Shown here piece after piece: positions 3,389 to 55,528 of a stretch of DNA of 64,000 bases. Source of the stretch: Dehalococcoidia bacterium (lineage in GTDB: Bacteria > Chloroflexota > Dehalococcoidia > Lucifugimonadales > UBA2985). The first letter of the stretch is position 1. Every line of letters begins with the position of its first letter. The stretch covers positions 260,663-324,662 of the forward strand of contig CBDCTU010000002.1 in the NCBI GenBank assembly GCA_965222415.1, in the 5' to 3' direction. The position numbers were made by a program, and so were the translations under genes. Below the pieces are notes generated by a model. That model saw only the letters and a program-made list of their open reading frames with translations. It made no database searches and was not told the DNA's origin.

Positions 3389-5039
3389 ATGACCGGGGAA
3401 CATGACGGGATGGACCAGGGGAAGCCATCGGATTACTACCTCGAGTTCCGCAGGATGATGGACGGCGTGGGTCACGAGGGCCTTCCCCGGATGATCGAAC
3501 ATTTGACAGCGGAGATTGAGGCGAACCCTTACGACACGGAAGCCCTAGCCGCGAGGGGGCTAGCTTACAGCGAGCTGGGGGACCACCGCAAGGCGATAGA
3601 GGACAACGGCGATAGAGGACAACGGCAGGATCATAGCCCTCGATCCCGACGATGCGGGCGCCTACTTGGACAGAGCCCGCGCCCATTCCGAGCTGGGGGA
3701 GCACCGCTCGGCGGTGGAGGACTACGACAACGCCATCCGCCGGGCTCCCGGCAATGCCGTGGCGCACTACAACCGGGGGGCGTGCAACGCCGAGCTGGGC
3801 AACCTGGCCGGAGCGGTCAATGACTTTGACGTAGCCATCACCCTGGCCCCCAACGATGCCGACGCCCACTACAACAGGGGGTTGACCTATGCCTCGATGG
3901 GAGAGCTCATCCGGGCGGTGGAGGACCTCAGCAAGGCAATAGAGTGCAATCCCAGCTTTGCCGTTGCCCACTACCACAGAGGACTCGCATACCGTGACCT
4001 CGGCGAGCCGGATAAGGCGCTCAGCGATTTCGACGCCGCTATAGAGCTCGAACAGAACTACGGCCTCGCCCACTACGCCAGGGGAATCACCAAGCTCAAT
4101 CTTGGAGCATACGAAGACGCGCTCCGTGACTTCGATGCCGTCATCGGCCTTGACCCCGACAACGCCTCCGCGCTCCGCAACAGGGGCGTCGCCCTCGGCG
4201 GCCTGGGGCGTTACGACGAAGCGATTAGGGACTTCGACCGATCCCTGGGCCTCGATCCCAACAACGCTGAGACCATCACGGCCAGAGGGCTCGCCCGCAC
4301 CCGCCTGGGGCAACACGAGCTAGCGATAGAAGACTACACTAGAGTCATAGACCTTGACCCCCGCAACACAGCCGTCCTCTACAACAGGGGGATGGCCCAC
4401 ATGTACGTGGCCGGGTACGAGCGCGCAGCTGAGGACTTCAGCGCAATTATCGAGATCGACCCGGACAACGCCGCCGCGTACATGGCGAGGGGATTCGCCC
4501 GCACGGCGCTGGGGGATCACAGTGGGGCGATCAAGGACTACGACAGGCTCATCGAACTCACCCCGGAGGACCCGATGGCGTACTACACGAGGGCGTACGC
4601 TCACTCGGAGATGGGTGAGCCCCACAGGGCGGTCGAGGACTTCGGGCGGGCCATCGCCCTCGACCCGGACAACATCGAGTCCCTCCGCAACAGGGCGGCT
4701 CTGTACGGAAGCCTCGGCGAGCCGGACAAAGCGGTACAGGACTACGACGAGATCATCCGCCTCGAACCTGACGACGCGGACGCTCACCACGCAAGGGGGT
4801 CTGCGCTCTTCACCCTTCGCAGATTCAGCGAGGCGGTTGTTGACTTGGACAGGGTCATCGAGCTTGAGCCGGACTACGACGAGCCCTACTACCAGAGGGG
4901 CGTTGCCCGCATGGAGCTCGGCGAGCACCGCAGGGCGGTCGAAGATTTCGACCAGTTCATCCGCCTGAATCCCGACGACCAATTCGTCCGCCACGACAGA
5001 CAGCTCGCCATCGAGCTGGCGGAGGCGGATGAACGGTGA
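3389..5039 (+). pseudogene. Tetratricopeptide-repeat (TPR) protein, frame broken by a 16-bp tandem duplication
   Basis: AGGAGG precedes the ATG at 3389. There are more than 12 consecutive 34-aa TPR units (..A..Y.RG.AY..LG....A..D...AI.L.P..). The N-terminal frame (3389) and the main frame (3666-5039) differ by +1, exactly as a 16-bp insertion predicts. Confidence 0.8.
3593..3624. repeat. Perfect 16-bp tandem duplication GCGATAGAGGACAACG x2
   Basis: Read directly: 3593-3608 equals 3609-3624. Deleting one copy gives KAIEDNGRIIALDPDDAGAYLDRARAHSELGEH, a seamless TPR unit. Confidence 0.97.
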
Positions 5040-5297: not shown

Positions 5298-6191
5298 TTA
5301 AGCGCCACCCGCCTCCGGCTGCGCCAACATACAAGAGATGCCAGGCGTCACGACAGGCGTAACCGACACCCGACCGCGGCTGTCGTACCCCGCACGGTAC
5401 GCATACTCCACCTTCGCGCCCCAGGGCACACGACCGCCGACCCGAATAGCGCCGCCTTGGCCCTGACCCGCCCCTTCACCGGCCCCACGCACCACCACTC
5501 CGTGCCGGTCACCCTTCTTCCAAGCCAGCACCTTCACCTCGGCGGGCACAACCCGCTCCTCTCTGGTCGGCCTAAACAGGACCCCGTGAAGCTTCTTCAG
5601 AACTCCCGCCGACGGAGTGGCCTTGCCGGACATGATGTTGGAGATGTGAGCCGAGCTGACCCCGGCCCGCCGGGCAACCTCGTTCTGGCTGATCCCATGA
5701 GCGTCCATCCGGCTCCACAGAGCTTCCTGGTCAACACAGGCGCGCTTTGCAGGAGCGACCTTGGCTGGTGCCTCCAGCGCAGACTCGACCCGCGCCTGGA
5801 CCTTGACGCCCATCCTCCTACGGCCCCGTGACACCTCCGTCATGTAGCCGTAACTCACCCCCACACGCTCGGCCAGGTCCTTCATGCTCATGCCCAACTC
5901 ACGAGCACGCTCACGAATAAAGCTGCTCTCCCCGCTCACCACGTCCCTCTGGCGGTAGACGAGTCCCTGACCGGGGGCCTCACCCAACGCTGCCAATGCC
6001 CTGTCCCGCATCCTGGTGGTCCACCGCCTGCGCCCTGATGCAAGCAGTGACAGGTATCCCCGGGTGACACCCAGTTCTGCCGCAAGCTCGCTCATCGTCA
6101 GCCCGCAGCGCCTCGCCGCGGCCCTGAGCTCACTCTCATAACCCGCTGCCGAGGTACCCTTGGTCCTATTGCTCATAGTTGCCGTTGTCAT
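5298..6191 (-). CDS. Triple helix-turn-helix (XRE-like x3) DNA-binding protein, module copy 1
   Basis: AGGAGG lies upstream of the ATG. Three HTH units are visible: LTMSELAAELGVTRGYLSLLASGRR, MSMKDLAERVGVSYGYMTEVSRGRR and ISQNEVARRAGVSSAHISNIMSGK. A beta-rich C-terminal domain follows. A full-length paralog sits at 53744-54646. Confidence 0.75.
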   Translation of the reverse strand: MTTATMSNRTKGTSAAGYESELRAAARRCGLTMSELAAELGVTRGYLSLLASGRRRWTTRMRDRALAALGEAPGQGLVYRQRDVVSGESSFIRERARELGMSMKDLAERVGVSYGYMTEVSRGRRRMGVKVQARVESALEAPAKVAPAKRACVDQEALWSRMDAHGISQNEVARRAGVSSAHISNIMSGKATPSAGVLKKLHGVLFRPTREERVVPAEVKVLAWKKGDRHGVVVRGAGEGAGQGQGGAIRVGGRVPWGAKVEYAYRAGYDSRGRVSVTPVVTPGISCMLAQPEAGGA

Positions 6192-6316
6192 CTCTACCTC
6201 CTACTTGTCTTGTTGCCTTGGATGAGCCCGTTTGCGGGCAAAGAAGAAGGGCCGACTCCGTATGGAGCCGGCCCTTGTGTATTGGGGCTATGTTGTGGTC
6301 GGGGCTTAGACGCCCG

Positions 6317-6562
6317 TCAGTGTTTGAGCCTTGGTACCCTGCGCCGAGACATCAACCTCCGGAGCAGCAGCGCACCGATGCCCAGCCCGACGAGGTGCAG
6401 TGCGAAGACCTCAACATCGCCGGTAACCGGCGGTAGTCGGAATCGCAGCACAGCGAAGCCGACCGTCATCGTCAGCCGCCTGCGCCGCGGGGCGATCCCG
6501 CCGAAGCCCGCTGGAACACTCTTGACCCTTGGAACCGTTGCCTTGATTTCTATGACGCTCAT
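6317..6562 (-). CDS. Small (81 aa) predicted membrane protein, module copy 1
   Basis: AAAGGAGA lies 6 nt upstream of the ATG at 6562. The protein MSVIEIKATVPRV... has a hydrophobic C-terminal half (VFALHLVGLGIGALLL). A paralog of identical length sits at 54773-55018. Confidence 0.6.
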   Translation of the reverse strand: MSVIEIKATVPRVKSVPAGFGGIAPRRRRLTMTVGFAVLRFRLPPVTGDVEVFALHLVGLGIGALLLRRLMSRRRVPRLKH

Positions 6563-6685
6563 TGATGTCTCCTTTCTGTTGCTGACCCGTGCAGGCATCC
6601 GTGGCGCGGGTCGTTGGTGATGAGGCTGACTAGTGACGCACTCCATCCTCGGTCGGATGCCGGAAGCGGGAGACGGAGTGTGGGT

Positions 6686-6888
6686 GAAGAAGGCGCAGCT
6701 CGCCCAGGGTCACATCACGGGAACCGTCTCAGGGGGAACTACTGAGGCGAGCGACCGGCCTGAGAGCTGGTCATAGAACAGCGCGGGCGAAAGTAGGCGC
6801 AGCTCGACCAGGGTCACATCACGGGAACCGACTCAGGAGAGCTGCTGCTACGTGGGGGATGAGGAAGACGCAGCGAGACCCGGGAGCT
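6686..6888. repeat. Iteron-like direct repeats, ~104-bp phasing (module copy 1)
   Basis: AGGCGCAGCTCG(C/A)CCAGGGTCACATCACGGGAACCG occurs at 6691-6726 and 6795-6830. A degenerate third copy, GAGGAAGACGCAGCGAGACCCGGGAGCT, lies at 6861-6888. The same repeat family occurs at 55146-55403. Confidence 0.8.
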
Positions 6889-7041
6889 AGATCGATAACG
6901 TCCTGGGATGCTGCGTGCGAGGGAAGCGGCCAGCCTGCGAAGACCTCATCGCAGACCGGCGCGTGGTGAAGCTGCGGCCAGTTCCACAGGAACCATGCCG
7001 CAGACGTGAGGAACCGGCCAGTGTGCAGGGCGCACTCCGAC

Positions 7042-7069
7042 CAGAGCCTGCCCCGTACTCGATACGGGG
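7042..7069. repeat. Conserved motif with 7-bp-stem hairpin, copy 1 of 3
   Basis: CAGAGCCTGCCCCGTACTCGATACGGGG, with stem CCCCGTA/TACGGGG and loop CTCGA. Near-identical copies lie at 13196-13223 and 55529-55555. Confidence 0.85.
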
Positions 7070-7391
7070 GTGTCCGAGGGGCCGAAGCGGGAAGCGCTTG
7101 GGCCGCTGCGAATGTGTCCCTCCGGGGCGGCCTTCGGGAGAGCGCAATGCTCGATCCCTCCGGTCAGTACCCCTGGGCGGCTATTCGGAGAGCGCGGTGC
7201 TCGATCCCATGCAGCCGGTCCCGGATTCGGGGGACGGGAACCCTCCAGGTTTCTCGGCGGGAAACACTGGAAAAGCCTGAAACTGACTCCATTATTGCCG
7301 AACGCCCGTGCGAAAGGAAGGGTTTGGCGTCGCCTGCGCCCAAAGCGTTCTGTCCAGTTCCACGAAACCCTAAGCGCGCCCCTGAAAGCGC

Positions 7392-8219
7392 CTACTGGCG
7401 CCACACATTCAGGGTGAGGATGCGCCTCGCCAACCGTCTCCAGGCCACCGCCCTTCGGACTTCGCGGAGGGTCTCCCGTCGCCAGTTGAGCTGCGAGCTC
7501 CGCCACAGGCCCGTCAGGGGCATAGTCTCCGGCGGCAGCGTCAGCCCGTGCTCCTCCAGCATGGCCACCTCCAACTCACGCACACGCAGCTCGACCTCCA
7601 GCCACGCCAGACCCCTGCCCCCGGCGGAGTGGGTCCTCCACAGCCTGCGCCACTCCTCGATGAGGGGCCACGCCTCGCCGTAGACCTGCTCGTCGTCGGG
7701 AGCCGGCTCCTTCGTCACCAGCTCGGGGTACAGTCGCCTTCCCACGGTGTGCCGCTCCGGCCTTCCGACTTCCTGCGGCGGTTCGGACACCGCCTCGGCG
7801 CCCTGGCGAGTCTTGGGCTGGTCCGCCGCACGCTCCATCCGCTTCGGCGCCCTGGTCCCCTCCTCACGCAGAGCCTGAACCGCCTCCTTCATCGCCGTGT
7901 CGGCATCTTCGAGGCCGCTTCGGAGTTCCATTTCCAACGCGTCCACCCGCCGCTCCAGGGCACTGATACGGTCGTCCGGTTGAGCGCCCGGTTCGTCACC
8001 CTCCGCCGACCGTTGCCGCTCCAGCGCCTCGCGGACCCGCCACGACATCCCCTCTCCGTCCATGCACGCCCCAACCGTCCTGGGGTCCAGGCCCAGCTCC
8101 CTGGCCGCCTCCACGCGTCCCTTCTTCCTCACCATGTCGTGCAGCAGCGCCCTGAGGCTCAGAACGTGCTCCTCCTCGGCGTCCACCCCGTCGGACACTG
8201 ACCGCTCACTCGATTCCAT
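7392..8219 (-). CDS. HTH plus long coiled-coil protein, module copy 1
   Basis: Probable start is MESSERS at 8219; the track ORF extends to 8267. The N-terminal HTH-like segment is GRVEAARELGLDPRTVGACM. The middle is heptad-rich (ISALERRVDALEMELRSGLED). The paralog is 55851-56693. Confidence 0.65.
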   Translation of the reverse strand: MESSERSVSDGVDAEEEHVLSLRALLHDMVRKKGRVEAARELGLDPRTVGACMDGEGMSWRVREALERQRSAEGDEPGAQPDDRISALERRVDALEMELRSGLEDADTAMKEAVQALREEGTRAPKRMERAADQPKTRQGAEAVSEPPQEVGRPERHTVGRRLYPELVTKEPAPDDEQVYGEAWPLIEEWRRLWRTHSAGGRGLAWLEVELRVRELEVAMLEEHGLTLPPETMPLTGLWRSSQLNWRRETLREVRRAVAWRRLARRILTLNVWRQ

Positions 8220-9055
8220 ACGTTTCACCCCTTCTGCAACTTGCTGCAACCTGTGTTTCCGCCGCAACCGGCCCCTGACAAAAGGTGTTCGCCGTTCACG
8301 TCCTGTAGGGGGCCGTTCCCCCCCAAATCAGCTTTGCCGACTACCCGATCTGCAACTTGCACACAGACTCGATTCCCTGTACAGCCCCATGACATCACGG
8401 CGGCCCCTCCGTCTGTAATCCCCCGGAGGGCACCTCATCGATGTACTCCCCTCAAGGTCACTACATCCGTGTAGTGCCTTCCAGGGGATAACCCTCGGCT
8501 TCCCGACTCCCCAGACTCGATGGCAAAACAGACGGCCCCATCAGCGACGAGGAGGCGAAAACATGGGAGCGCAATCGACCGATCAACGGACCCTCGGCAG
8601 AGCCGGAGGACGCGCCAGAAGGCTTCGGCGCCTGGCCTCATGTCCTGGAGAGGACTGTCCGGTAGGGGCTGCATACCCGGGATTCCGGCCTTCTCGTCCA
8701 ATTGCTTGCTCCGATGTAGCAGCAATGCCGGCCTCCCTCTGGGCGGTCTCCCTTTCAGTGACCGGAACCAGCCCATTCACCAGAGCGCTCGCAACTACGG
8801 CTCCCACCTCCCTCTTTTGCGGCCATTTCACGTTCAAACCTGCCCCAGACCGCCCTCCTGGGAGTCGGCGCAAATCCCTGTACACGGGTATGACAGCACA
8901 TCCCGCCCATTTCCGCCCATGGCCCCAAAAGGGAGGACTCGCGCGTCCTCCCAAGTGCGGCATGGTGTCCCGCCTCACGGCTCCCCACACTCGATTGCAA
9001 TCAGACGGACGGTGACAGCCCGATGCGGGCTCACGCGAGCCCGGCGAAGAGAGCG

Positions 9056-9283
9056 ATGAACGACAAGAGCAGACAGAACGGGCAACCGACGCCCGAAGAG
9101 GACCTCTCCGAGTTCGGCGTGGTCAGGGTCATCTCCAGGCCCGTCCCCGACGCCGAGGACAGGCTGCGCCGTCTCTTCACTATCCTGCTCAAGCCCCCTG
9201 ACAGTGACGGGCACGCTGCGTCCGAGAAGGACCCGCCCCCGGACGACCGGCATGTGGATAACCACCTGGAGGCTGAAATCTGA
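9056..9283 (+). CDS. Small hypothetical protein (start 9023 or 9056)
   Basis: Third-position G/C is strongly enriched. The protein reads MNDKSRQNGQPTPEEDLSEFGVVRVISRPVPDAEDRLRRLFTILLK... Its stop overlaps the next gene's start (TGATG at 9281-9285). Confidence 0.5.
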   Translation: MNDKSRQNGQPTPEEDLSEFGVVRVISRPVPDAEDRLRRLFTILLKPPDSDGHAASEKDPPPDDRHVDNHLEAEI

Positions 9284-10521
9284 TGCGGTCCGAGTCGTCC
9301 CCCGACCGTCAGAAGCCTGCGCCGAGGGATTCGGCTCTCAGCCACGACGCCCCATATCGGGCCGTCTTCGGAGACGTGTCGAAGATCATCGACGCGGCCA
9401 GGGAGACGGCCGCCCGCTCGGTGAACGCCGCCATGACCGCCGCGTACTGGCTCGTTGGGCGGCGCATCGTCGAGTTCGAGCAGTCGGGTGAGGACAGGGC
9501 CGAGTACGGAGCCGCGTTGATCGAGAGCCTGGCGCAGGACCTGACCGGGCAATTCGGACGGGGCTTCTCCCGTCAGAACCTCCAGAACATGCGACTGTTC
9601 TACCTTTCGCATCCGCCCGACCGGATTCGCCAGACACTGTCTGGCAAATTGAATCGACCCTCTCAAATGCCGATTCGCCAGAAGGCGTCTGGCATATCCG
9701 AAGCTTCCTCCGTCGAAGAGGGCTTCCACGACCTTCTGGCGGCCTTTCCGTTGCCCTGGTCGGCCTATGTACGGCTCCTGTCCGTAAGGGACGAGCACGC
9801 CCGCGAGTTCTACGAGACCGAGGCGCTGCGGGGAGGATGGTCGGTCCGCCAGCTAGACCGGCAGATCGGCTCACAGTTCTACGAGCGCACCGCCCTGTCC
9901 AAGAACAAGGCCGCCATGCTGGCGCGGGGGCAGAAGCCCAGGGCCGAAGACCTCGCGCGTCCCGAGGAGGAGGCCAAAGACCCCTTCGTCCTGGAGTTCC
10001 TTGACCTCAAGGACGAGTACTCGGAGAGCGACCTTGAAGAGGCGCTCATTCGCCACCTGGAGACCTTTCTCATGGAGCTCGGAGGCGACTTCTGCTTCAT
10101 GGGAAGGCAGAGGCGGCTGCGCATCGGCAACAGGTGGTACAGGGTAGACCTGCTCTTCTTTCACCGGACCCTGCGGTGCCTCGTGGTCATCGACCTGAAG
10201 ATCGGGGCGTTCACCCACGCCGACGCCGGGCAGATGCACCTCTACCTGAACTATGCCCGGGAGCGCTGGGCGCGGGAGGGCGAGAACCCGCCTGTCGGAC
10301 TCATCCTGTGCTCCGAGAAGGACGAGGCCCTGGCGCAGTATGCCCTCGATGGCCTGCCGAACAACGTGATGGCTGCGGAGTACCGGATCACCCTGCCGGA
10401 CGAGGCGCTCCTGGCGTCAGAGCTCGACCGGACGAGGCAGGCGATGGAGACGTACGGTTCATCAGCGGCGGGGGCTCCGACGACGACCGCCGCGTCGTCA
10501 GGTGACGAACCGGAGGATTGA
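9283..10521 (+). CDS. YhcG/DUF1016-family PDDEXK nuclease-like protein
   Basis: The N-terminal half has WLVGRRIVEFEQSGEDRAEYGAALIESLAQDL..FSRQNLQNMRLFY. The C-terminal half has FCFMGRQRRLRIGNRWYRVDLLFFHRTLRCLVVIDLKIG. Both are characteristic of DUF1016. Confidence 0.85.
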   Translation: MRSESSPDRQKPAPRDSALSHDAPYRAVFGDVSKIIDAARETAARSVNAAMTAAYWLVGRRIVEFEQSGEDRAEYGAALIESLAQDLTGQFGRGFSRQNLQNMRLFYLSHPPDRIRQTLSGKLNRPSQMPIRQKASGISEASSVEEGFHDLLAAFPLPWSAYVRLLSVRDEHAREFYETEALRGGWSVRQLDRQIGSQFYERTALSKNKAAMLARGQKPRAEDLARPEEEAKDPFVLEFLDLKDEYSESDLEEALIRHLETFLMELGGDFCFMGRQRRLRIGNRWYRVDLLFFHRTLRCLVVIDLKIGAFTHADAGQMHLYLNYARERWAREGENPPVGLILCSEKDEALAQYALDGLPNNVMAAEYRITLPDEALLASELDRTRQAMETYGSSAAGAPTTTAASSGDEPED

Positions 10522-10739
10522 GCGGGACACTGTGGGGAACGCTGGCAGAACGGGAACGCGTCTTGACGCCCCACATTCATAGTGGCGACCTCGCGAGCGT
10601 CGGACCGCCGTAGACTTCTACGTCAGTGCGTCCTACTATGAATAGCAATCGAGGGTAGTGTCTCAGTTTGGGTGTGGTGGAGTACGCCTACGGGTGGGAG
10701 TGGATTCTTGAGGAAATCGAGAAAGGATAGGAGGTTACT

Positions 10740-11312
10740 ATGGCCCTTGACACACCGGATATCTACATAATTGAGTCGGTTGACTTGGAAAACGAGGCCA
10801 AGGGTGAACGAGAGGGAGAGGCGCTTACGGAGATTCTCAAGCTGTCGGGTAAGTCCCCGCGATACGTTTACATTCGAACGAAGCGGGAACTAATACACTT
10901 CTTGGAGGACTTTCAAGAAAGCGGATATCGTTACTTGCACTTATCCTGCCACGGGAATAGTCGAGCCATCGGAACCACATTCGACACGATCTCGTTCCAA
11001 GAGCTAGGCGACCTTCTTAGGCCATACTTACAAGATAAACGGCTGTTCATCTCGGCTTGTAGTGTGGTGAACGACCAATTTCGACAAGCCGTGATGACTG
11101 GCTCGGGATGCCTATCAACGATAGGTCCTAGCAAGGATGTTGATTTCGATCAAGCCGCGATCTTTTGGGCCTCGTTTTACTACCTGATGTTCGACACCGA
11201 CACGAGGCGTATGAAGCGTGACGACATCCTGCCAACCGTCAAAAAATTGGCGCGGTTGTTCGAGCTGCCGATAACCTACTGCTCTCGAACACGAACTCAT
11301 GAGATAGGCTGA
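10740..11312 (+). CDS. Hypothetical 190-aa protein with caspase/CHAT-like His-Cys dyad
   Basis: GGAGG precedes the ATG. The gene is visibly AT-richer than its neighbours. YRYLHLSCHGN and KRLFISACS lie in the order and spacing of the caspase-fold catalytic His and Cys. Confidence 0.55.
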   Translation: MALDTPDIYIIESVDLENEAKGEREGEALTEILKLSGKSPRYVYIRTKRELIHFLEDFQESGYRYLHLSCHGNSRAIGTTFDTISFQELGDLLRPYLQDKRLFISACSVVNDQFRQAVMTGSGCLSTIGPSKDVDFDQAAIFWASFYYLMFDTDTRRMKRDDILPTVKKLARLFELPITYCSRTRTHEIG

Positions 11313-11498
11313 GTGAGACCTGTGGTGAGAAGGTGCTTTTGGTCAAACGAGTACACTACCGAGAGCCGCCGCGCTTTGACCCTGCCCCCCAGATCGCGGT
11401 ATCATGGGGTCAGAAAGTTGGCCCGGCGATGCTGCAAACATCCCGGGCCGTGGCGCCACCTGGTTGGACAGGTGATGCGAATAGATTGTACTACTCGC

Positions 11499-11535
11499 AG
11501 ACCCGCTCCCGACAGGAGGCGGGTCTTCTTCATTT
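11499..11535 (+). terminator. Rho-independent-type terminator after 10740-11312
   Basis: AGACCCGCTCC-CGACA-GGAGGCGGGTCT forms a GC-rich stem, followed by TCTTCATTTC. Confidence 0.55.
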
Positions 11536-11559
11536 CAGGGAATCCGAGAGGAGGGAATC

Positions 11560-13149
11560 ATGGCGATGAGAACCACCGATAGGGAGACGGGAACGAAACG
11601 GGCGGCCATATACTCCCGCGTGTCGGACAAGAGCCAGGACACGGAGGAGAAGGTCTCCATCTCCGAGCAGACCGCCGAGATGGAGGCCTACTGCGAGCGG
11701 AGGGGAATGACCATCACCGCCCGATACCAGGAGGTGGGCAGGGGCTGGTCCAAGAACCGCCCGGAGTTCCAGCGCATGCTGGCCGATGCGCGGGACGGCC
11801 GGTTCGACGTCATCGTCTGCTGGAAGATGGACAGGCTGAGCCGCGGGATGTACCCGGCAGCCGCCATGATGGAAGTCGTCGAGGCGCACCAGATTCGCCT
11901 GGAGTCGGTCATGGACCCCGTCGACATGAAGATGTTCGGGATCATGGCGGCCATCGGGAAGATAGAGCTGGACAACATCCGGGAGAGAACATCCATGGGC
12001 AGGCGCGGGAAGGCCAAGCAGGGCCGAATGCCGAATGGCTCGGTCCCCTATGGATACCGTATTGGGGAGGACGGCAAGCCGGTGGTATACGAGCCGGAGG
12101 CCGAGATCGTGAGGCGCATCTTCCGCCAGTACGTGCACGAAGGGATGGTGGGGCTGGAGATAGCCCGTCAGCTGGCCCGAGACAATGCCCCTACCTGGAG
12201 GCCCGGCTCGCGGTGGCAGAACTCCTACGTGCATTCTCTCCTCGGCAAGGAGGTCTACAAAGGCATCTGGTGGTACGGAAAGGCCCGCTGGGTGGCCACG
12301 GAGGGCAGGGACCGGGTCACTAGGCAGCCGGAGGACACGTGGATAGGGGTACCCTTCCCGCCCCTGGTGGACGAGCAGACGTGGGATCGGGCGCAGGCCA
12401 TCAAGAAGCAGCGGGCCTCCCTGTCCAAGCGGAACACCAAGGTCTTCTTCCTGTTGCAGCACCTCGTAAGGTGCTCCGAGTGCGGTCTGCTCTTCGGCTG
12501 CCGGTCCAAGACCAGAGCAACCGCGAAGTACAAGGACAGGAGGTACACCTACGACCTGAAGACTCCTAACCGCTACTACCACTGCTACGGAATGCAGAGG
12601 GAGCACATGCGGTGCCGGCAACGGCCATACATCCGAGCCGACAGGTTGGAGGAGCTGGTCTGGAGAGAGGTCAGAACGGTGGTTCAGAATCCCGACCTGA
12701 TCGTGAAGGGCATGGAGTCCATGGGGGAACAGGAGGATGGCGGGCTTCAGAAGCGGATTGCCATGGCGGAGCGTGAGCTCCGTAAGGTACAGACGGAGGA
12801 GGACAGGGCTATTGGCCTGTATGTATCAGGCAAGATCTCCGAGGACCAGCTCGACCACCAACGCAAGCGTATACAGGAACGTCTGGAAGCCGCACGGGCA
12901 AGGCTCTATGACTACCGTGCTCAAGGGGCAGCGGCCACGGAGAGGAAGGTACTGACGGGGAACATTGCCGAGTGGTCCCGCAGGATTGGCGGTCGATTGG
13001 ATGACCTGCCCTCCGAGGAGCGTCGGGACATCCTGAGGCTAATCGTGGACCAGATCGCCATAGATCGTGACAATAGCGTCACTATCACCCTGGGCATCCC
13101 GACTCAGGATTTCGTGTCAATTGAGAAAGAGGGCTCTCGAACCATTTGA
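11560..13149 (+). CDS. Large serine recombinase (resolvase domain + recombinase domain + zinc ribbon + coiled coil)
   Basis: GAGGAGGG precedes the ATG. RAAIYSRVSDKSQ contains the catalytic Ser. VIVCWKMDRLSRG is present. CSECGLLFGC...YYHCYG is the zinc ribbon. The C-terminus is coiled coil. Length is 529 aa. Confidence 0.9.
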   Translation: MAMRTTDRETGTKRAAIYSRVSDKSQDTEEKVSISEQTAEMEAYCERRGMTITARYQEVGRGWSKNRPEFQRMLADARDGRFDVIVCWKMDRLSRGMYPAAAMMEVVEAHQIRLESVMDPVDMKMFGIMAAIGKIELDNIRERTSMGRRGKAKQGRMPNGSVPYGYRIGEDGKPVVYEPEAEIVRRIFRQYVHEGMVGLEIARQLARDNAPTWRPGSRWQNSYVHSLLGKEVYKGIWWYGKARWVATEGRDRVTRQPEDTWIGVPFPPLVDEQTWDRAQAIKKQRASLSKRNTKVFFLLQHLVRCSECGLLFGCRSKTRATAKYKDRRYTYDLKTPNRYYHCYGMQREHMRCRQRPYIRADRLEELVWREVRTVVQNPDLIVKGMESMGEQEDGGLQKRIAMAERELRKVQTEEDRAIGLYVSGKISEDQLDHQRKRIQERLEAARARLYDYRAQGAAATERKVLTGNIAEWSRRIGGRLDDLPSEERRDILRLIVDQIAIDRDNSVTITLGIPTQDFVSIEKEGSRTI

Positions 13150-13195
13150 GCGTGAAGACTGCGGCTTAGATTTCCCCGCTACCCTTCGACAGGCT

Positions 13196-13223
13196 CAGAG
13201 CCTGCCCCGTACTTGATACGGGG
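13196..13223. repeat. Conserved hairpin motif, copy 2 of 3, 47 nt after the recombinase stop
   Basis: CAGAGCCTGCCCCGTACTTGATACGGGG. It is immediately preceded by the perfect dyad CAGGCTC-A-GAGCCTG (13190-13204). Confidence 0.85.
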
Positions 13224-13308
13224 ATGAGCGGGTGGTATCGGCATTATCAACACACAACGAGAACAGCGCCCCTCGCTCAGCGCACGCGCTCCATGCTATA
13301 GTTCTTCC

Positions 13309-14933: not shown

Positions 14934-14972
14934 ACTATAGTATGGTCCGCAAAGAGTCGATTCGTAACAAGA

Positions 14973-49805: not shown

Positions 49806-50021
49806 GTGCCGAGCCTGTGTCCTCTCCGTTCGTGGCACGCCTCGCCCGACGGGTCGGGGTGGGGCCCCTAACTACATCGCCAGCTTGAACCTCAAGGTGA
49901 AGGTTTTAGACTCTGTCCAGGATGGTGGGCTTTCAAGAGGCGGCACTCTTGAGTCTATTTTGTGTACGTGGCTGTCATAGGGAATGAGACTGTGACCTTA
50001 CCCCGTTATTAGTATCAGAGG

Positions 50022-50100
50022 CTAGTAGAGTGCAGCTACCGCTTCAGCATACTCCTTCGGCGACCTGCCGTTCAACGAGCTGTGGGGTCTGACCTCATTG
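50022..50100 (-). pseudogene. C-terminal scrap of an rve-type transposase
   Basis: The minus strand reads NEVRPHSSLNGRSPKEYAEAVAALY*, with its stop at 50022-50024. It abuts and overlaps the stop of the restriction-modification gene. Confidence 0.5.
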
Positions 50101-53100
50101 TAGTCCTGTCGCCACCAGCCCCAAAATGCCGGCTATCCGCCGGGCGGTGTCCGTGAGGTCCTGCACCTCCTCAGGTCGCAGCGCCCTGCCCAATACGCCG
50201 CGCTCTCGGTAGGAGAGCCACTTCTTGAGCACCTGGTACCCGCCCAGCTTGTAGCTCCAGACCGCCGACGGGACGTTCCGCCAGTAGGCGCGGTCGTTGA
50301 GGTGGATGTCGAAGGTGGTATCGCCGAGGGCGTTTTCCGCGCTGCCCAGGGCGGCGCGCTCCTCAGATGTGTACGGGCGCTCGACGACGCGCCCCTGGCC
50401 TGGCATGACGGCCTCTCCCTGCCCGAAGTGCCCCCAGCCAGCCGTCACCGAGAAGTCGTCTCCGGCCATGTTGCCGCCGTCCGTGGTTGTCGGCACGGCA
50501 ACCGACGCAATCTCCGGCCGCAGCGCGCCCGTCGTGACGCCGGGTACGGGCGTCTCCGAGTCAAGCAGCGCGGCAAGTTCCCGTCCCCTGGAGGCCGAGG
50601 CCTTCAGCTCCTCCGCCGCTCCGGTGGCGTCGCCGTCCGGCCAGCCCGGCAGCGGAATGCGAGGCCACTCCATCCTGAGGGCGCCGGCGTTGGCCTCCCG
50701 GTAGGAGGGGTCATGCAGCACGGACAGGACGTGATGGAATAGGTCCTCCACGCCCAGGCCAAGGCGGTCCAGGTAGCCTTGGGCCGCGTCCGACAGGTTG
50801 GGACGTCGCTGCTCTCCGCCGCCGTCAAGTGCCATGCCCTCTTCATGGAGCCAGGCCGGAATACAAGTGGCACCTCTATCTATCAAGTCCAGGCAACCCA
50901 GGCTGGAGATAACCTGCGGAGGAGACCATTCTCTACGTGGTTTATGCTGTGCGACCATCCAAAGATTATTCTCGAATAGGTGCGGTTTGTAGTCTGGAAC
51001 TGGACGACCAAGCAGACCGTGTCCTGTTTCCCAATATAGCCATCTTGTATCAAACGGTCTGTAGGAATGTCGGACAAAGTTGTCATCAATCGGGCCACCA
51101 CGGGTGAGCAATGAGTTCCTCACCTTCTGAGCATCGGATACCACAAACCCCGATGAGCTCTTCATTGCGGAAGGGTACTTCGTTTCCACCTCAGTGCTAC
51201 TGACGGAGGGATCGAAGTATTCGCCCACCCTGGCCTTGAGTTTGTTGAGTTCTATGTCAATAAGAAACGCATCTCGTTTGCTCTGTACCCCTGGAAAAGA
51301 TACGGGAAACAAGTCCGGCAGCGCAGGCCAGGCAGACCATCCACCGCTGACCGCAACCGGGGTAAAGGGCAAACCCAGCGGTAAGCTCGGCTCAACGTTG
51401 CCATACAGAGTATTCGAACCCGTTTCGGCAGTCGCCGTCAAGTCGGAGAGCTTGGCCTGTCCCCACAGATGGCGGAAGCCGACTTCCTTGGCGGGTTGGT
51501 GGTCGGCTTTGCGCACAAGGGTCGTAATCGCCGTACCCACCTGGATGCCCACCGGATCGCCTAGCGTGGAGAAGATGCTTGGGTCGGGCGCGCCATCGGG
51601 AGTCGTCTTACCGGTCTTGTACTTGTCGCCGTTGAGGTTGTCTATGCGGATAGAGTCAAAGGCCTCCAGGTAGCGCTCCCTCATGCCCGTGAAGGAGAGG
51701 CCGTCCAGCCAGGAGTAGTTGGAGATGAAGCAGACCACGCCCCGGCCCGTCTTCTCGGCAATGCGACGCTCCGCCATGCGGAAGAAACGCACGTACAGGT
51801 CGTTCAGCCCCTGGCCCTCCGGTCTCCGCACCCGCCTGGTGGTCCGATAGGCCGTGGAGAGCTCCCGCTCCTCATCGACAGCCATCCCCGCAAAGCCGTT
51901 GTAGGGCGGATTGCCCAGGATGACCAGGACCGGCGTCTCCTGCTTCACCCTATCGGCGCGGTCGCGCTCCTCCTCCAGCTCCGGGAATGGCAGCGGCTTC
52001 TGCACGCTTGGCTCCCAGCCGGTGAGGGCGTTGGTGAGGTACACCCCGGCCCGCTCCGTCTCGTCATCGGACAGGGGGGCGTCCAGCGCCTGCATTGTCA
52101 GGCCAACCTGCAGATGGGAGACGACGAATGGCGCAGGCATGATCTCGAACCCGAACACCCTTTGAGTGGCCGCCCTCTTCACCTGCGCTCCGGTGAGTGC
52201 GCCGAGGCCCTTGCCCTGGAGGTTGGCGGCGATGCGACGCAGCACCTCGGCGAGGTACGTCCCCGTGCCGCAGCATGGGTCGAGGACGTATACGTTCTCA
52301 GCGGCCAGGCCGTCGGCGATGCCCAGGTCCTCCTTCAACGCCATGTCCACGCGGGCGACCATGTAGCGCGCCACCTCGGCGGGCGTGTACCAGACGCCCA
52401 GCTGCTTGCGAAGGTCGGGGTCGAAGGCCTCAAGGAACGGCTCGTAGAAGTAGGGCACGGCCTCGCCTGCGTCGAAGCGGTCGAAGAAGGCCGCGCGGTC
52501 GACCCGGTCCAGGGCCGCCGACGTCCAGTCCAACAGCTCGACTAGGCCCAGGGGCTGAAGCTGTGCGGGTGAAGACAGCTGCTGGAAGAGGGCGCGCAGG
52601 ACGGGTGCTCTCAGGTGCCAGACGGAGGTGCGCCAGTCGAATGGTCCGGTGGGCGGCGGCGTCTGGCGGGCCCAGAGCACCCATGCGGAGAAGACGCCGT
52701 AGAAGAGGGTCTGCACCAGCGTAGAGCGGAAGAAGGCCGCGCCACGCTCGCCCTCGAAGCGCACGCCCAGCGCCTCCTCCAGGGCGGAGCGCACGGCATG
52801 AAGGGATGGCTCGTCGCCCGCGGCCTCTACCCTTGCCAGCCCGTCCCTGGCGTAGGAGGCCAGCAGCCAAGCCAGGTCCCTGGGTTCGACTATCGACGCG
52901 CTGTGGGAGAGCGCACGGCACAGGTACTCCCCCAGCCCCGCTCCCACGTCGCTTGCGAACTTCCGCGGCTGCTCAAGCCGGGCGTGGAACGCCTGCTCCG
53001 ACTCTGCTACTCGGAAGGTCTCCAGCTTCACCGGGTTGCCCTGCCCGTCCTCCCCCACCAGCACGAAGTCGCGGGTGTTGGTGACCAGCACCAGCCTGTA

Positions 53101-53451
53101 GCGGCCCCAGTATCGGCTGACCTGGTCGCTGTCTGCGGTAAGCCAGGCGTCGTCGCCGGCGGGCTTGACCTCCACAACGCCCCGCTCAGGGACCTGGCCG
53201 GGGCGCGGCTTGCCCTTCTGCACCTGCTTCCTGGCGTACAAACCGAGGTCCGGGTGGCCCGCGCCCTGCTCGGCAAGCTCGCTTACGCAGAACACCTGGG
53301 GCTTGAGCGTGTTGCCTACGGCGTTCAGCAGGTTGGTCAGAGCCGGATAGTAAGATTTTTCCCCCGTTGCGCCGCCGGATGCTCGTATACTCCGTAGGTT
53401 GGCGAAGTACTCCTCGACTGCTGCGGTTAGCTTTGCTGTGGTTACTGGCAT
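50095..53451 (-). CDS. Single-polypeptide type IIG/IIL-like restriction-modification enzyme (N-terminal PD-(D/E)XK-like nuclease, gamma-class N6-adenine methyltransferase, C-terminal specificity region)
   Basis: GHPDLGLY...GVVEVKP is a D..EXK motif. VLDPCCGTGTYL is the SAM motif I. ILGNPPYNGF is motif IV (NPPY). The C-terminal WSYKLGGYQVLKKWLSYRE is what I recall from type ISP/IIG specificity domains. No helicase domain is present. Length is 1118 aa. Confidence 0.7.
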   Translation of the reverse strand: MPVTTAKLTAAVEEYFANLRSIRASGGATGEKSYYPALTNLLNAVGNTLKPQVFCVSELAEQGAGHPDLGLYARKQVQKGKPRPGQVPERGVVEVKPAGDDAWLTADSDQVSRYWGRYRLVLVTNTRDFVLVGEDGQGNPVKLETFRVAESEQAFHARLEQPRKFASDVGAGLGEYLCRALSHSASIVEPRDLAWLLASYARDGLARVEAAGDEPSLHAVRSALEEALGVRFEGERGAAFFRSTLVQTLFYGVFSAWVLWARQTPPPTGPFDWRTSVWHLRAPVLRALFQQLSSPAQLQPLGLVELLDWTSAALDRVDRAAFFDRFDAGEAVPYFYEPFLEAFDPDLRKQLGVWYTPAEVARYMVARVDMALKEDLGIADGLAAENVYVLDPCCGTGTYLAEVLRRIAANLQGKGLGALTGAQVKRAATQRVFGFEIMPAPFVVSHLQVGLTMQALDAPLSDDETERAGVYLTNALTGWEPSVQKPLPFPELEEERDRADRVKQETPVLVILGNPPYNGFAGMAVDEERELSTAYRTTRRVRRPEGQGLNDLYVRFFRMAERRIAEKTGRGVVCFISNYSWLDGLSFTGMRERYLEAFDSIRIDNLNGDKYKTGKTTPDGAPDPSIFSTLGDPVGIQVGTAITTLVRKADHQPAKEVGFRHLWGQAKLSDLTATAETGSNTLYGNVEPSLPLGLPFTPVAVSGGWSAWPALPDLFPVSFPGVQSKRDAFLIDIELNKLKARVGEYFDPSVSSTEVETKYPSAMKSSSGFVVSDAQKVRNSLLTRGGPIDDNFVRHSYRPFDTRWLYWETGHGLLGRPVPDYKPHLFENNLWMVAQHKPRREWSPPQVISSLGCLDLIDRGATCIPAWLHEEGMALDGGGEQRRPNLSDAAQGYLDRLGLGVEDLFHHVLSVLHDPSYREANAGALRMEWPRIPLPGWPDGDATGAAEELKASASRGRELAALLDSETPVPGVTTGALRPEIASVAVPTTTDGGNMAGDDFSVTAGWGHFGQGEAVMPGQGRVVERPYTSEERAALGSAENALGDTTFDIHLNDRAYWRNVPSAVWSYKLGGYQVLKKWLSYRERGVLGRALRPEEVQDLTDTARRIAGILGLVATGLQ

Positions 53452-54772: not shown

Positions 54773-55018
54773 TCAGTGTTTGTGCCTCGTTACCTTGTGC
54801 CGAGACATGATCCGCCGGAGCAGCAGCGCACAGATGCCCAGCCCGATGAGGTGCAGTGCGAAGACCTCCATGCCGCCGGCCAGCAGCAGTTGCCAGGCCA
54901 GCAGTGCAGCGAAGCCGACCGCCATCGTCAGCCGCCTGCGCCACGGGGCGAGCCCGCCAATGACCACAGGGATGATCTCGACCCTTGGAACCGTTGCCTT
55001 GATTTCTATGACGCTCAT
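54773..55018 (-). CDS. Small (81 aa) membrane protein, module copy 2
   Basis: MSVIEIKATVPRV... has the same length and RBS context as 6317-6562. Confidence 0.6.
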   Translation of the reverse strand: MSVIEIKATVPRVEIIPVVIGGLAPWRRRLTMAVGFAALLAWQLLLAGGMEVFALHLIGLGICALLLRRIMSRHKVTRHKH

Positions 55019-55145
55019 TGATATCTCCTTTCTATTGCTGACCCGCGCTGGCATCCGTAACGCGGTTCTTTGTTCTTGGGTTCGGTTGACGCTGGACACA
55101 CTACGCCCACGGTCGGGTGCCGGACGCGTGAGACGGAGGGGGGTT

Positions 55146-55403
55146 GAAGAAGACGCAGCTCGCCCAGGGTCACATCACAGGGAACGGACTTAGGGGGAGC
55201 TACTGAGGGGAGCGATCGGCCTGGGAGCTGGTCACAGGACGACGCGATGAAGAAGACGCAACTCGGCCAGGGTAATGAGACAGGAATTCTTATGGTGTGG
55301 GCTGCTATCTAAGAAACGTCTGACCTACGAGATGGTCATAGGGCGACGCAGGTGAAGAAAGGCGCAGCTTGGCTTGGGCCAGAAACGTCCAGGTGGGAAC
55401 CGC
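55146..55403. repeat. Iteron-like direct repeats, ~103-106-bp phasing (module copy 2)
   Basis: GAAGAAGACGCAGCTCGCCCAGGGTCACATCACAGGGAACGG lies at 55146-55187. Degenerate copies lie at 55249-55286 and 55355-55403. This is the same family as 6686-6888. Confidence 0.8.
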
Positions 55404-55528
55404 GTGGAATGAAGCGACTGGCCTGTCCATAACTGCAGACCAGTGCGTGTTGAAGCTGCGGTATGTGGCAGTTGGTAGCAAACCGCAGGCATGTGGAACC
55501 GATCGGAGTCACAGACGCACTCCGAGCA

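Follow-up and report, generated by a model that had tools for sequence, protein, structure and literature searches.

Two probable reduced members of one integrative element family in a Dehalococcoidia contig

The 64-kb stretch of Dehalococcoidia DNA analysed here (hereafter the window) contains two copies of the same three-gene core, and we consider it likely (probability about 0.8) that both are integrated, reduced members of one integrative conjugative element (ICE) family of uncultured Dehalococcoidia. In copy 1, a short arm encoding a DUF1016 nuclease, a candidate defence protein, has replaced the transfer operon, and an intact type 1 recombinase is kept. Copy 2 has retained a relaxase and a Type ISP enzyme, but no secretion genes and only a fragment of a type 2 recombinase. 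As no type IV secretion gene occurs within the window, neither copy is itself an ICE. In both copies, the core consists of three genes, for a coiled-coil protein, for a small membrane protein with two helices and for a protein with three HTH units, with a long spacer between the first two genes:

5298..6191, minus strand: copy 1 multi-HTH protein, three Xre-type HTH units and a C-terminal beta-rich tail (Pfam)
6317..6562, minus strand: copy 1 small protein, 81 aa, two hydrophobic helices
6563..7391, minus strand: copy 1 long conserved spacer, read as leader
7392..8219, minus strand: copy 1 coiled-coil protein
53744..54646, minus strand: copy 2 multi-HTH protein, 300 aa, three units (Pfam)
54773..55018, minus strand: copy 2 small two-helix protein (homology to copy 1)
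55019..55850, minus strand: copy 2 spacer, a conserved leader with promoter-like boxes
55851..56693, minus strand: copy 2 coiled-coil protein, 280 aa

The two cores are co-oriented and lie 48,446 bp apart, with housekeeping genes (TypA/BipA, RNase D and an ABC transporter) between them. An earlier note on this DNA had described a paralogous triplet with the same order and orientation, 48.4 kb apart; self-BLASTN and an ORF check bear this out, all six core ORFs being confirmed on the minus strand at the positions given above. Positions 5290-6814 match 53736-55273 with 82.6% identity over 1540 nt, and in each copy the similarity starts ~8 bp past the stop codon of the HTH gene, close to where the note had placed its onset. 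A second match joins 7174-7303 to 55641-55767 (78%); elsewhere in the spacer, and in the coiled-coil genes, divergence is too great for a DNA-level match. The HTH and 81-aa proteins had been called mostly identical; the former share 85% (251/295), the latter only 66%, less than this description suggests, although their N-terminus MSVIEIKATVPRV is identical. The coiled-coil proteins are indeed more diverged (38% identity). Between copies, the HTH genes show a dS of 0.53 and a dN/dS of 0.18, the latter indicating purifying selection. Copy 1 is itself a mosaic: related locus L002 shares 95.6% identity with it over 7070-8695, and L001 shares 84-85% on either side of that stretch. G+C content reaches 62-65% in the islands versus 52-58% in adjacent DNA.

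The copy 1 multi-HTH protein matches Pfam HTH_3 on three stretches (E 4e-23), and its AF2 model shows three helical units and a low-confidence tail. Family members carry 3-6 such units, and we propose this protein as the master repressor. The small protein has no family match in Pfam, NCBIfam, PADLOC or PHROGs; its motif PLLTLDxELFFLNLVGLGIGALLLRRF is kept in >30 related loci. In the copy 1 coiled-coil protein, an N-terminal HTH-like helical bundle leads into one long helix, which a disordered linker joins to a helical domain at the C-terminus (AF2 pLDDT 69.7 overall, ~90 for residues 12-72). Its family has 828+ members and neither a Pfam domain nor a name, and a Foldseek search with the model gave no match with E below 0.9. 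A regulatory role for the three core proteins is suggested only by their position, their HTH content and analogy.

Within and next to the spacers, the following elements were found:

-35 at 7319-7314 and -10 (AATAAT) at 7296-7291, minus strand: copy 1 sigma-70-like promoter
-35 at 55783-55778 and -10 at 55760-55755, minus strand: copy 2 promoter-like boxes
6687-6733 and 6791-6837: two 47-nt direct repeats, copy 1 spacer
copy 1 spacer: palindrome TCCAGnnTTTC..GAAAcCTGGA
copy 1 spacer: two GGATCGAGCnnnnGCTCTCC hairpins
7043-7069 (copy 1 spacer), 55529-55555 (copy 2 spacer) and 13197-13223 (junction segment, see below): 27-nt palindrome
6247..6276, minus strand: terminator-like hairpin in the gap between the copy 1 small-protein and HTH genes

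In an 18-locus alignment, conservation is higher in the promoter and leader than in the genes on either side. RNAalifold predicts 23 pairs in the leader, with compensatory changes in 2, and the leader matches no Rfam family. The copy 2 equivalent of the terminator-like hairpin is a perfect 30-bp palindrome (54702-54731). Separately, the 27-nt palindrome is a dispersed sequence and merits a study of its own.

The family context comes from a VirB4-like protein scan, which returned at least 574 loci in Dehalococcoidia MAGs, several per genome. Among the best 80, which we analysed, the coiled-coil gene lies divergently upstream at a fixed position in 74, a Replic_Relax (MOB_C) homolog is present in 78, a large serine recombinase occupies the far end of the arm in 57 and the HTH protein occurs in 36, all four with fixed positions and orientations. 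The backbone comprises, by Pfam, T4SS_pilin, TrbL, a TraG/TraC-type P-loop ATPase, TrwB_AAD_bind, Replic_Relax and Resolvase + Recombinase + Zn_ribbon_recom, and the Replic_Relax, coiled-coil, HTH and recombinase proteins of the window all fall within backbone clusters. The core genes are thus linked to recombinases and Replic_Relax and are not ordinary paralogs. Comparison of the loci shows that full members consist of a leftward module (coiled-coil gene, promoter and ~700-nt leader, small membrane protein gene, multi-HTH gene) and a divergent rightward operon, which starts with VirB6/TrbL, T4SS pilin, a PrgI-like protein and VirB4 and continues with a TrwB-like coupling protein, the relaxase (Replic_Relax, MOB_C), several small HTH proteins and, last, the large serine recombinase, whose gene adjoins the element end with its 3' terminus. 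Past the HTH gene lies a variable arm, most often with restriction-modification genes of Type I or Type ISP, or with a TPR gene. We looked for an existing name, and found no established one for this element family.

The arms of copy 1 and its right end contain:

3666..5039, plus strand: TPR-repeat protein adjoining the HTH gene (Pfam, 12 TPR_1 stretches)
8520..11582, plus strand: right arm, five ORFs
8520-9059, plus strand: o8520, right arm
9023-9283, plus strand: o9023, right arm
9283-10521, plus strand: DUF1016/YhcG PD-(D/E)XK nuclease (Pfam DUF1016_N + YhcG_C)
10740-11312, plus strand: o10740, right arm
11313-11582, plus strand: o11313, right arm
11560..13149, plus strand: intact type 1 large serine recombinase, 529 aa (Pfam)
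13110..13156, plus strand: candidate right att region at the recombinase 3' tail, TTTCGTGTCAATTGAGAAAGAGGGCTCTCGAACCATTTGAGCG
13157..13251: junction segment linking the element end to native DNA; a REP-like hairpin here holds the 27-nt palindrome

In L012 and L016, the same TPR gene (66-68% aa identity) adjoins the HTH gene, and the DNA is 75-76% identical to these loci; we regard it as a variable-arm gene whose membership in the island is uncertain. The right arm accompanies the core in L001, L003, L014-L017 and L024 too, and the recombinase/DUF1016 arm recurs among 23 HTH-centred loci; 10450-11394 is missing from L001 and from one variant in the same metagenome. Pfam confirms both the DUF1016 nuclease, which PADLOC assigns to the candidate defence system PDC-S02 (E 2e-134), and the intact recombinase (Resolvase, Recombinase and Zn_ribbon_recom domains; 96% identical to that of L001), as the earlier note had described them. 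Its label "caspase-like" for the product of 10740-11312 finds no support, with zero matches in Pfam, NCBIfam, PADLOC and PHROGs.

The surroundings of the copy 2 core contain:

49872..49928, minus strand: att-like site, CCACCATCCTGGACAGAGTCTAAAACCTTCA-cct-TGAGGTTCAAGCTGG, related to type 2 recombinase 3' tails
50095..53451, minus strand: Type ISP restriction-modification enzyme, downstream of and co-directional with the HTH gene (Pfam)
56987..57250, plus strand: o56987, 87-aa ORF
57289..59001, plus strand: Replic_Relax + MarR-like protein (Pfam PF13814)
59240..60070, plus strand: o59240, 276-aa hypothetical protein
60350..60789, plus strand: type 2 large serine recombinase remnant (tblastn with the L175 recombinase)

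The Type ISP enzyme has Type_ISP_C, N6_Mtase and Eco57I domains (Pfam), and the HTH-to-Type ISP arrangement is shared with L001, L002 and L024 (80-83% aa identity). Homology to L001 and L002 stops at 49982, and the att-like site, of which only 24/31 positions fit the type 2 element-end consensus, is a candidate left end of the island. On the other side, o56987 has no relatives among the fetched loci and o59240 no family match in Pfam, NCBIfam, PADLOC or PHROGs. The Replic_Relax protein (27.4 bits for PF13814, cut-off 25.3) had been correctly recognised but wrongly counted as cargo: it clusters with the 550-aa backbone protein of 78/80 VirB4 loci, albeit at only 46-53% identity to the relaxases of sampled full elements, and is a backbone protein of the family, probably its MOB_C-type relaxase. 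Tblastn also confirmed the decayed recombinase, whose remnant covers residues 33-179 only, in three frames with two frameshifts and one in-frame stop, and is cut off at 60789, the 3' two-thirds being deleted. Type 1 and type 2 recombinases are ~26% identical.

Several comparisons bear on the ends of these elements. Among 14 full copies, pairwise homology always ends at the recombinase 3' end. L014, L015 and L017, from three MAGs, have in common an 18.3-kb island that carries the same core. Its ends are sharp, with inverted GCCAATCGACAC / GTGTCGATTGGC motifs just within them, and directly outside the flanks differ in all three. For copy 1, homology to L001 and L024 stops at 13110..13156, the last 21 nt of which match the right half of a dispersed palindrome, REP-X (L062, L079, L114, L136). 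Six related genomes lack the block of at least 13 kb left of CoxG that carries copy 1; they have instead 6 kb of conserved sequence upstream of CoxG, which the window lacks, and synteny with them picks up again at ~13252. Together with the linkage to VirB4 loci and the discrete ends, these six relatives support the reading as an integrative mobile-element family. A search for an att-site pair of copy 1 found none; its left end lies outside the window or was destroyed by an IS1380 element. The limits first proposed (5298-13149 and 53744-60790) are too narrow, because the restriction-modification or TPR genes past the HTH gene travel with the element in relatives. The HTH stop codon marks a junction of modules and is no proven element end. 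The search for circular junctions was negative: with the strain at ~35x, the recombinase end shows no branch, alternative or excision junction in two metagenome runs, searched as assembled unitigs, from which rare circles could escape.

An unlikely alternative, though the best surviving one, is that the core controls defence genes, the multi-HTH protein being a C-protein-like regulator of the adjacent restriction-modification and DUF1016 genes, and that the islands are defence islands which just happen to lie near recombinases. A Type ISP or Type I system does directly follow the HTH gene in copy 2 (290 nt downstream and co-directional), L001, L002, L024 and L014-L017, the nuclease fits PDC-S02, and the HTH protein has weak PADLOC matches to HTH_VI, capH and control-protein models. 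However, these matches span only single generic HTH units, the genes past that for the HTH protein differ from locus to locus (TPR, Type I, Type ISP or other genes, in some cases convergent, not co-directional), and the coiled-coil gene accompanies the secretion operon in 74 of the best 80 loci regardless of them. Somewhat less probable still are integrated-plasmid remnants, with Replic_Relax as replication initiator and the coiled-coil and HTH proteins as a KfrA/KorA-like partition or maintenance pair. The Pfam family is named Replication-relaxation, the spacer direct repeats could be iterons, and the modelled coiled-coil protein has an HTH-like bundle followed by a long helix, which we take to be the general KfrA shape. 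Yet there are no relatives in 72,556 plasmid records or in viral contigs, all fetched relatives sit on megabase-size contigs with a terminal recombinase, element depth equals that of the chromosomal flanks in metagenome unitigs, and a partition ATPase is absent. Finally, an ordinary chromosomal paralog pair or one locus duplicated in assembly, to which two co-oriented copies around housekeeping genes in 64 kb might point, is refuted by the divergence, which the note had already cited against an assembly duplication, the differing arms with recombinases of two types, the mosaicism of copy 1 and the even unitig depth of the unique parts in two metagenome runs.

Among known systems, the ICE family proposed here resembles monoderm-type ICEs with a serine integrase (for example Tn5397, with TndX) and regulatory layouts like that of ICEBs1 (immR-immA/xis): an Xre-type repressor module diverges from a transfer operon with VirB4, coupling protein, VirB6 and pilin, an integrase lies at one end, and members are multi-copy with flanks that vary by copy. 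It differs in its repressor (a tandem array of 3-6 HTH units), its coiled-coil HTH protein and small membrane protein (both without family assignment), its ~700-nt leader between genes and its Replic_Relax/MOB_C-type relaxase. The ssrA genomic islands of Dehalococcoides (McMurdie et al. 2011, PMC3146451) are integrative mobilisable elements whose serine integrase is DsiB. They occur in the same bacterial class, several per genome, and combine a conserved module and discordant, exchangeable cargo with a ~530-540 aa large serine recombinase at the island edge, whose 3' end overlaps the att site (PMC3146451). In contrast, a search of the window gave neither a tmRNA gene nor an ssrA repeat, the module described here lacks DsiA, RecF-like protein, ParB and Mom, and ssrA islands have no secretion system or relaxase (PMC3146451), whereas full members of our family have a type IV secretion system and a relaxase. 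PF13814 has been equated with MOB_C relaxases (PMC5357655); the window protein (27.4 bits) and the family backbone protein (33.6 bits) both exceed its cut-off, if marginally, and in family loci the relaxase gene directly follows the coupling protein gene, but these proteins are ~550-570 aa long with extra N-terminal winged-helix regions, and no nicking site or oriT was identified. SCCmec-type cassettes (CcrAB serine recombinases; PMC3146451) are the closest functional analogue of copy 1, as non-conjugative islands of ~8-20 kb that a large serine recombinase moves and that hold accessory cargo, although copy 1 has a single recombinase instead of a CcrA/CcrB pair, lacks an orfX-type unique target and derives from an ICE backbone.

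We suggest that the shared triplet is the control switch of the element. The multi-HTH protein would be an ImmR/cI-like repressor and the coiled-coil protein a further regulator that binds DNA; the divergent promoters and the repeat-rich leader would be the targets of both. The recombinase would integrate a circular form at a quasi-palindromic site overlapping its own 3' end. Copy 1 could then at most be excised and mobilised in trans, and copy 2 would be fixed in place. The copies in the window are thus real, yet a fairly ordinary kind of mobile-element remnant; the family to which they probably belong is widespread, self-transmissible and multi-copy in Dehalococcoidia MAGs, and is so far unnamed.

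Self-comparison of the window returned one long direct repeat (5290-6814 versus 53736-55273, 82.6% identity over 1540 nt) and a second matching stretch (7174-7303 versus 55641-55767, 78% identity), both located in a core of three genes and a long spacer that is present twice. The six ORFs attributed to the two cores in the earlier note are all there, on the minus strand. In both copies, similarity starts about 8 bp past the HTH stop codon. At the protein level, copies 1 and 2 are 85% identical for the triple-HTH proteins, 66% for the small proteins (whose N-termini are identical), and 38% for the coiled-coil proteins. Housekeeping genes lie between the copies (TypA/BipA, RNase D, an amidase, and an ABC transporter), and the window is therefore chromosomal.

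Features of the two copies (window coordinates)
5298-6191, minus strand: multi-HTH gene, copy 1
6317-6562, minus strand: small gene, copy 1
6563-7391, minus strand: leader (spacer), copy 1
7319-7314 and 7296-7291, minus strand: -35 and -10 boxes of the copy 1 promoter
7392-8219, minus strand: coiled-coil gene, copy 1
11560-13149, plus strand: large serine recombinase, copy 1 (type 1)
49872-49928: inverted copy of the type 2 recombinase end, about 170 bp past the Type ISP gene and near the end of homology with the relative loci L001 and L002
53744-54646, minus strand: multi-HTH gene, copy 2
54773-55018, minus strand: small gene, copy 2
55019-55850, minus strand: spacer, copy 2
55851-56693, minus strand: coiled-coil gene, copy 2

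The HTH gene, with a dN/dS of 0.18 between the window copies, is under purifying selection. Its product belongs to a large and unnamed family (1979 matches among the candidates scored), the members of which carry 3, 4, 5, or 6 HTH units of about 73 aa each; the structure model of the protein is poor (pLDDT 53). The coiled-coil protein has at least 828 relatives, with neither a Pfam domain nor a name. Its predicted structure consists of an HTH-like bundle, one 50-residue helix, a disordered linker, and three C-terminal helices, for which a Foldseek search of the PDB gave no match with E below 0.9 and no structural neighbor. As for the small gene, dN/dS between the window copies is about 1 and dS is low (0.19, versus 0.53 in the adjacent HTH gene), a pattern that could stem from recent gene conversion of this patch or from constraint on the nucleotide sequence. 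Such a dN/dS value also hints at a non-coding ORF, an explanation ruled out by protein-level conservation in more than 30 distant loci.

The leader between the coiled-coil and small genes has a recurrent layout. A sigma-70-like promoter (a TTGACA-like -35 box, 17 nt, and an AATAAT -10 box) lies about 75-100 nt past the coiled-coil stop codon and is kept in all 18 aligned loci. It is followed by the palindrome TCCAGnnTTTC..GAAAcCTGGA and then by two or three GGATCGAGCnnnnGCTCTCC hairpins, and in these 18 loci this stretch is more conserved than the proteins. About 730 nt separate the promoter from the start of the small gene, and a terminator-like hairpin lies between that gene and the HTH gene. 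RNAalifold backs the leader hairpins, with compensatory changes in only 2 of 23 pairs, that is, with thin covariation. Two simple accounts of the spacer were rejected: it has no Rfam match, at gathering or permissive thresholds, that would make it a known RNA, and the number of HTH units shows no relation to the count of GGATCGAGC or of 47-nt repeats.

A genome scan based on the HTH protein identified 23 loci, nearly all in MAGs of uncultured Dehalococcoidia and up to four per genome, in which the order coiled-coil gene, spacer, small gene, HTH gene recurs. On the coiled-coil side, these relatives carry either the arm of copy 1 (o8520, o9023, DUF1016, o11313, and the recombinase, ORFs being named by their start in the window) or type IV secretion genes (VirB4/TraC-like ATPase and TrbL/VirB6). 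On the HTH side, some match copy 2 with a Type ISP enzyme, others copy 1 with a TPR gene, and a Type I restriction-modification operon is also found. This operon, co-mobile with the element in relatives, has a DUF2442/DUF4160 pair between hsdS and hsdM (L017 17453-18020 and equivalents in L014-L016). The window is itself a mosaic of its closest relative, OZ244718.1: positions 7070-8695 are 95.6% identical to one OZ244718.1 locus, and the flanking parts are 84-85% identical to another. Variants without 10450-11436 or without 7284-8872, as in the layouts of loci L001 and L024, occur in the same metagenome. Paired cores also recur, at distances of 48 kb in the window (5298/53744), 90 kb in CBDBNN010000003.1 (L014, L016), 38 kb in OZ244831.1 (L008, L020), and 47 kb in OZ241990.1 (L009, L011); such pairs, 38-90 kb apart, may mark an integration-prone region.

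Full relatives are conjugative elements. Scanning with the VirB4-like protein retrieved at least 574 loci at 84-100% protein identity, with at least three in several single genomes, and ORF clustering of the best 80 of these loci delineated a backbone. One strand carries the HTH array, the small protein, and the coiled-coil gene. The other strand encodes a 206-aa protein, VirB6/TrbL, a T4SS pilin, a 574-aa protein with a PrgI-like N-terminus, and VirB4, followed by a TrwB-like coupling protein, a 550-aa Replic_Relax protein, small HTH proteins, and frequently a PAPS-reductase-like protein; the arm terminates in a large serine recombinase. The suggested linkage of the core to recombinase and Replic_Relax genes is borne out, as these best 80 VirB4 loci contain the coiled-coil gene in 74 cases, Replic_Relax in 78, the recombinase in 57, and the HTH gene in 36 (the last two counts being limited by locus length and divergence). 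The family can thus be classed among monoderm-type ICEs that have a serine integrase and a probable MOB_C relaxase.

The two window copies are reduced in different ways. On its right side, copy 1 has a DUF1016/YhcG nuclease, assigned by PADLOC to the candidate defense system PDC-S02, and an intact recombinase (11560-13149) with all three large-serine-recombinase domains in Pfam: Resolvase catalytic (PF00239, E 1.9e-28), Recombinase (PF07508, E 1.7e-15), and zinc-ribbon (PF13408, E 2.1e-9). The 'caspase-like' label previously given to 10740-11312 found no support in four libraries. The recombinases of the family form two types, one sharing about 60% identity with the copy 1 enzyme and the other about 26%, and the copy 2 remnant belongs to the second. 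It had been described as decayed, and only a frameshifted N-terminal part of this type 2 enzyme is indeed left, residues 33-179, in three frames with one stop and cut at 60789. Copy 2 also encodes a putative relaxase, a Replic_Relax protein that scores just over the cut-off (27.4 bits) and falls in the backbone cluster of the family; copy 1 has none. This gene had been taken for cargo. It is instead assigned to the backbone, because PF13814 is the domain of the MOB_C relaxase class (PMC5357655) and is so regularly found in the VirB4 loci. The putative copy 2 relaxase is only 46-53% identical to those sampled, and its branch of the family is therefore a more distant one.

Mating-pore genes (VirB4 ATPase, coupling protein, and VirB6), present in full relatives, are found in neither window copy, and both are therefore ICE derivatives, not ICEs. 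An IME combines a functional integrase with its own relaxase or oriT and has no mating pore; copy 1 has an integrase and no relaxase, and copy 2 has a putative relaxase and a dead integrase. Because each is without part of the machinery, the two copies fall into neither class, and "ICE-derived islands" is the most fitting name for them. Copy 1 is reminiscent of an SCC-like recombinase cassette carrying a candidate defense nuclease, and copy 2 is a fixed remnant. This genome holds two horizontally acquired islands, and one recombinase may still be active.

Where these islands end was examined in 14 full copies, among which pairwise homology always stops at the recombinase gene's 3' end. At the opposite side, homology often stops exactly at the HTH stop codon, followed by one of at least three alternative terminator hairpins. 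The clearest discrete unit is an 18.3-kb island in three MAGs (L014, L015, and L017), made up of the recombinase, DUF1016, the core, and a Type I restriction-modification operon, in that order. Both of its ends are sharp, with three unrelated flanks immediately outside and an inverted 10-12-mer 15-22 nt inside each end. Genes past the HTH gene can therefore belong to the mobile unit, and the HTH stop codon is a junction between exchangeable modules, not the end of the element.

For copy 2, a candidate left end comes from the recombinases themselves. In type 2 recombinase genes, the final codons form a quasi-palindrome, CCACCAGACTTGACAAAATCAAGAACCTTCA-cgc-TGAGGTTCAGGCTGG, which is also found elsewhere in the loci; judging by sequence, its inverted copy at 49872-49928 may be the left end of the copy 2 island, which would then include the Type ISP enzyme. 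Two fragments of a hybrid histidine kinase/response regulator (48729-49334 and 49363-49980, plus strand) adjoin this site. The first ORF starts inside HATPase_c and the receiver domain is divided across both ORFs, indicating 5' truncation and frameshift of the histidine kinase.

For copy 1, the type 1 recombinase tail is common to the window, L001, and L024 up to 13156, where the sequences diverge. The right end is thus sharp, at 13156 relative to L001 and L024 and at about 13252 relative to six genomes without the block. The last 21 nt of the tail are the right half of a dispersed palindrome, REP-X, a coincidence seen in all three loci. REP-X (TTCCCGCTCATGGTGAGCCTGTCGAACCATTTGAGCGGGAA) was located at 2697-2716 in L062, at 4797-4816 in L079, and in L114 and L136, and matches the window at 13137-13156 with its right half; it may serve as the target for integration or else belong to the end of the element. 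As marks of the left end we considered an inverted copy of CAATTGACAC or the left half of REP-X, neither of which was found at the far side of copy 1 within the window.

Comparison with empty sites, as the earlier note had advised, supports an insertion. The 6 kb conserved upstream of CoxG in six related genomes are absent from window positions 1-13250, and synteny with these relatives is restored at about 13252 and, a second time, at 17729. The inserted DNA left of CoxG therefore amounts to at least 13.2 kb and comprises IS1380, the TPR gene, and copy 1, its left end lying outside the window. The low-G+C segment (52%) at 13750-17728, between CoxG and tRNA-Arg (17732-17805), is a separate insertion beside the tRNA gene: it carries a DUF4238 gene (13875-14933, minus strand) as well as an IS3-type integrase-core transposase (15563-16609), and stands where OZ244718.1 has 1.66 kb of unrelated sequence. 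The circular junctions also sought did not appear: in unitigs of two metagenome runs (X1 and X2), assemblies of a kind that drops rare variants, no alternative junction was seen at the recombinase end and the recombinase-bearing unitig is unbranched through the end region. In the two runs with this strain, element depth equals flank depth, at about 30-40x.

Of the systems described in the same class, the nearest to this family are the Dehalococcoides ssrA islands (PMC3146451). As here, a serine integrase, about 540 aa long, marks the island edge and overlaps the att site with its 3' end, and exchangeable cargo is combined with conserved modules (PMC3146451). However, ssrA islands integrate in the tmRNA gene and have a 20-bp ssrA direct repeat, neither of which is in the window, where ARAGORN and Rfam yield only the tRNA-Arg gene and no tmRNA gene. 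They also have a six-gene module (DsiB, DsiA, RecF-like, ParB, Mom, and one more), whereas the window copies have a single recombinase and no ParB, Mom, or small resolvase genes. Finally, ssrA islands are without transfer genes (PMC3146451), unlike full members of this family, which have type IV secretion. A prophage is a poorer description, as 10 proteins have no PHROG match and IMG/VR contigs gave one marginal match, to a single HTH. As for a plasmid, a tblastn search of PLSDB gave no match, and the element depth, equal to that of the flanks, speaks against a raised copy number. We found no paper describing this family, or any ICE family in Dehalococcoidia or other Chloroflexota. The earlier observation of two related modules is confirmed and their interpretation as mobile elements is supported; the boundaries and the assignment of cargo had to be revised.

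Considering its content and its position divergent from the transfer operon, we infer that the triplet would be the control module of the element and the multi-HTH protein its repressor, by analogy with ICEBs1 and phage-type switches. A more specific proposal, which we regard as unlikely though worth stating, is that core and leader form an undescribed ICE decision switch, in which 3-6 Xre-type HTH units read the repeated hairpin/operator units of the ~700-nt leader, and that the recombinases target dispersed REP-type palindromes, not one chromosomal site. If such targeting were true, an ICE could multiply in transposon-like fashion to at least three copies per 3-Mb genome, leaving reduced copies as here.

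The most unusual item encountered, a 27-nt palindrome (AGAGCCTGCCCCGTACTNGATACGGGG; unit AGAGCCTGCCCCGTACT[C/T/G]GATACGGGG, 7-bp stem, 5-nt loop), is not part of the element finding. It occurs at 7043-7069, 13197-13223, and 55529-55555 (three occurrences versus 0 expected) and in at least 118 stretches of the genome scan (L025-L142), with 131 different flanks among the 144 hits listed. Hosts include Dehalococcoidia, Pseudoxanthomonas isolates, Methylococcales, Syntrophaceae, Nitrospira, Brocadiaceae, and Entotheonella. The palindrome occupies loops of other palindromes and lies in frame inside IS630-, IS66-, and IS1380-type transposase ORFs and VirB4 (L163, L179, L184, L213, L214, and L220, near 11650-11703), where EAGD-RDPESSSGQAL-ARLL replaces the EAGD-PGL-ARLL of genes without it; its stem shows compensatory changes. 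Its unitig depth reaches about 24,000x, versus 36x in the flanks, and it has no Rfam family and no paper that we found containing the sequence. It has the look of a very small, promiscuous insertion of palindromic form, similar to RPE/REP elements. The copies at 7043 and 13197 were ruled out as an att pair of the recombinase, because the motif is found in so many stretches of many phyla, inside transposase and VirB4 ORFs, and unlinked to recombinase ends; apparent 7072->13199 joints in unitigs result from the shared motif.

Other repeated sequences were noted in the window. The 570-aa ORF at 1104-2816 (plus strand), considered as a Replic_Relax paralog of 57289-59001 on account of its equal length, is actually an IS1380-type DDE transposase gene (DDE_Tnp_1_4). 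Its unitig depth is about 100,000-196,000x in four metagenome runs, versus about 35x for unique DNA, and the IS is therefore extremely abundant in these communities. In the metagenome, the 27-nt palindrome is present in some copies, at the position matching window 1580-1584. Two giant ORFs (35872-41649 and 43009-48144, minus strand; 1925 and 1711 aa) contain long internal DNA repeats with periods of about 300-600 nt (for example 44804-46398 versus 45134-46701, 84%) and probably encode repeat-rich surface proteins.

Placement in an ICE gives three core protein families without annotation a testable role, and makes them a marker with which to search for such elements in the Dehalococcoidia and other Chloroflexota, which have hardly been explored for conjugative elements. 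The abundance of VirB4 loci, at least 574 and several per genome, suggests that genes flow actively among these uncultured bacteria, which are probably host-associated and for which the family is a vehicle of restriction-modification and other defense genes. Its recombinases and their predicted att sequences are a possible genetic tool in a group without a genetic system.
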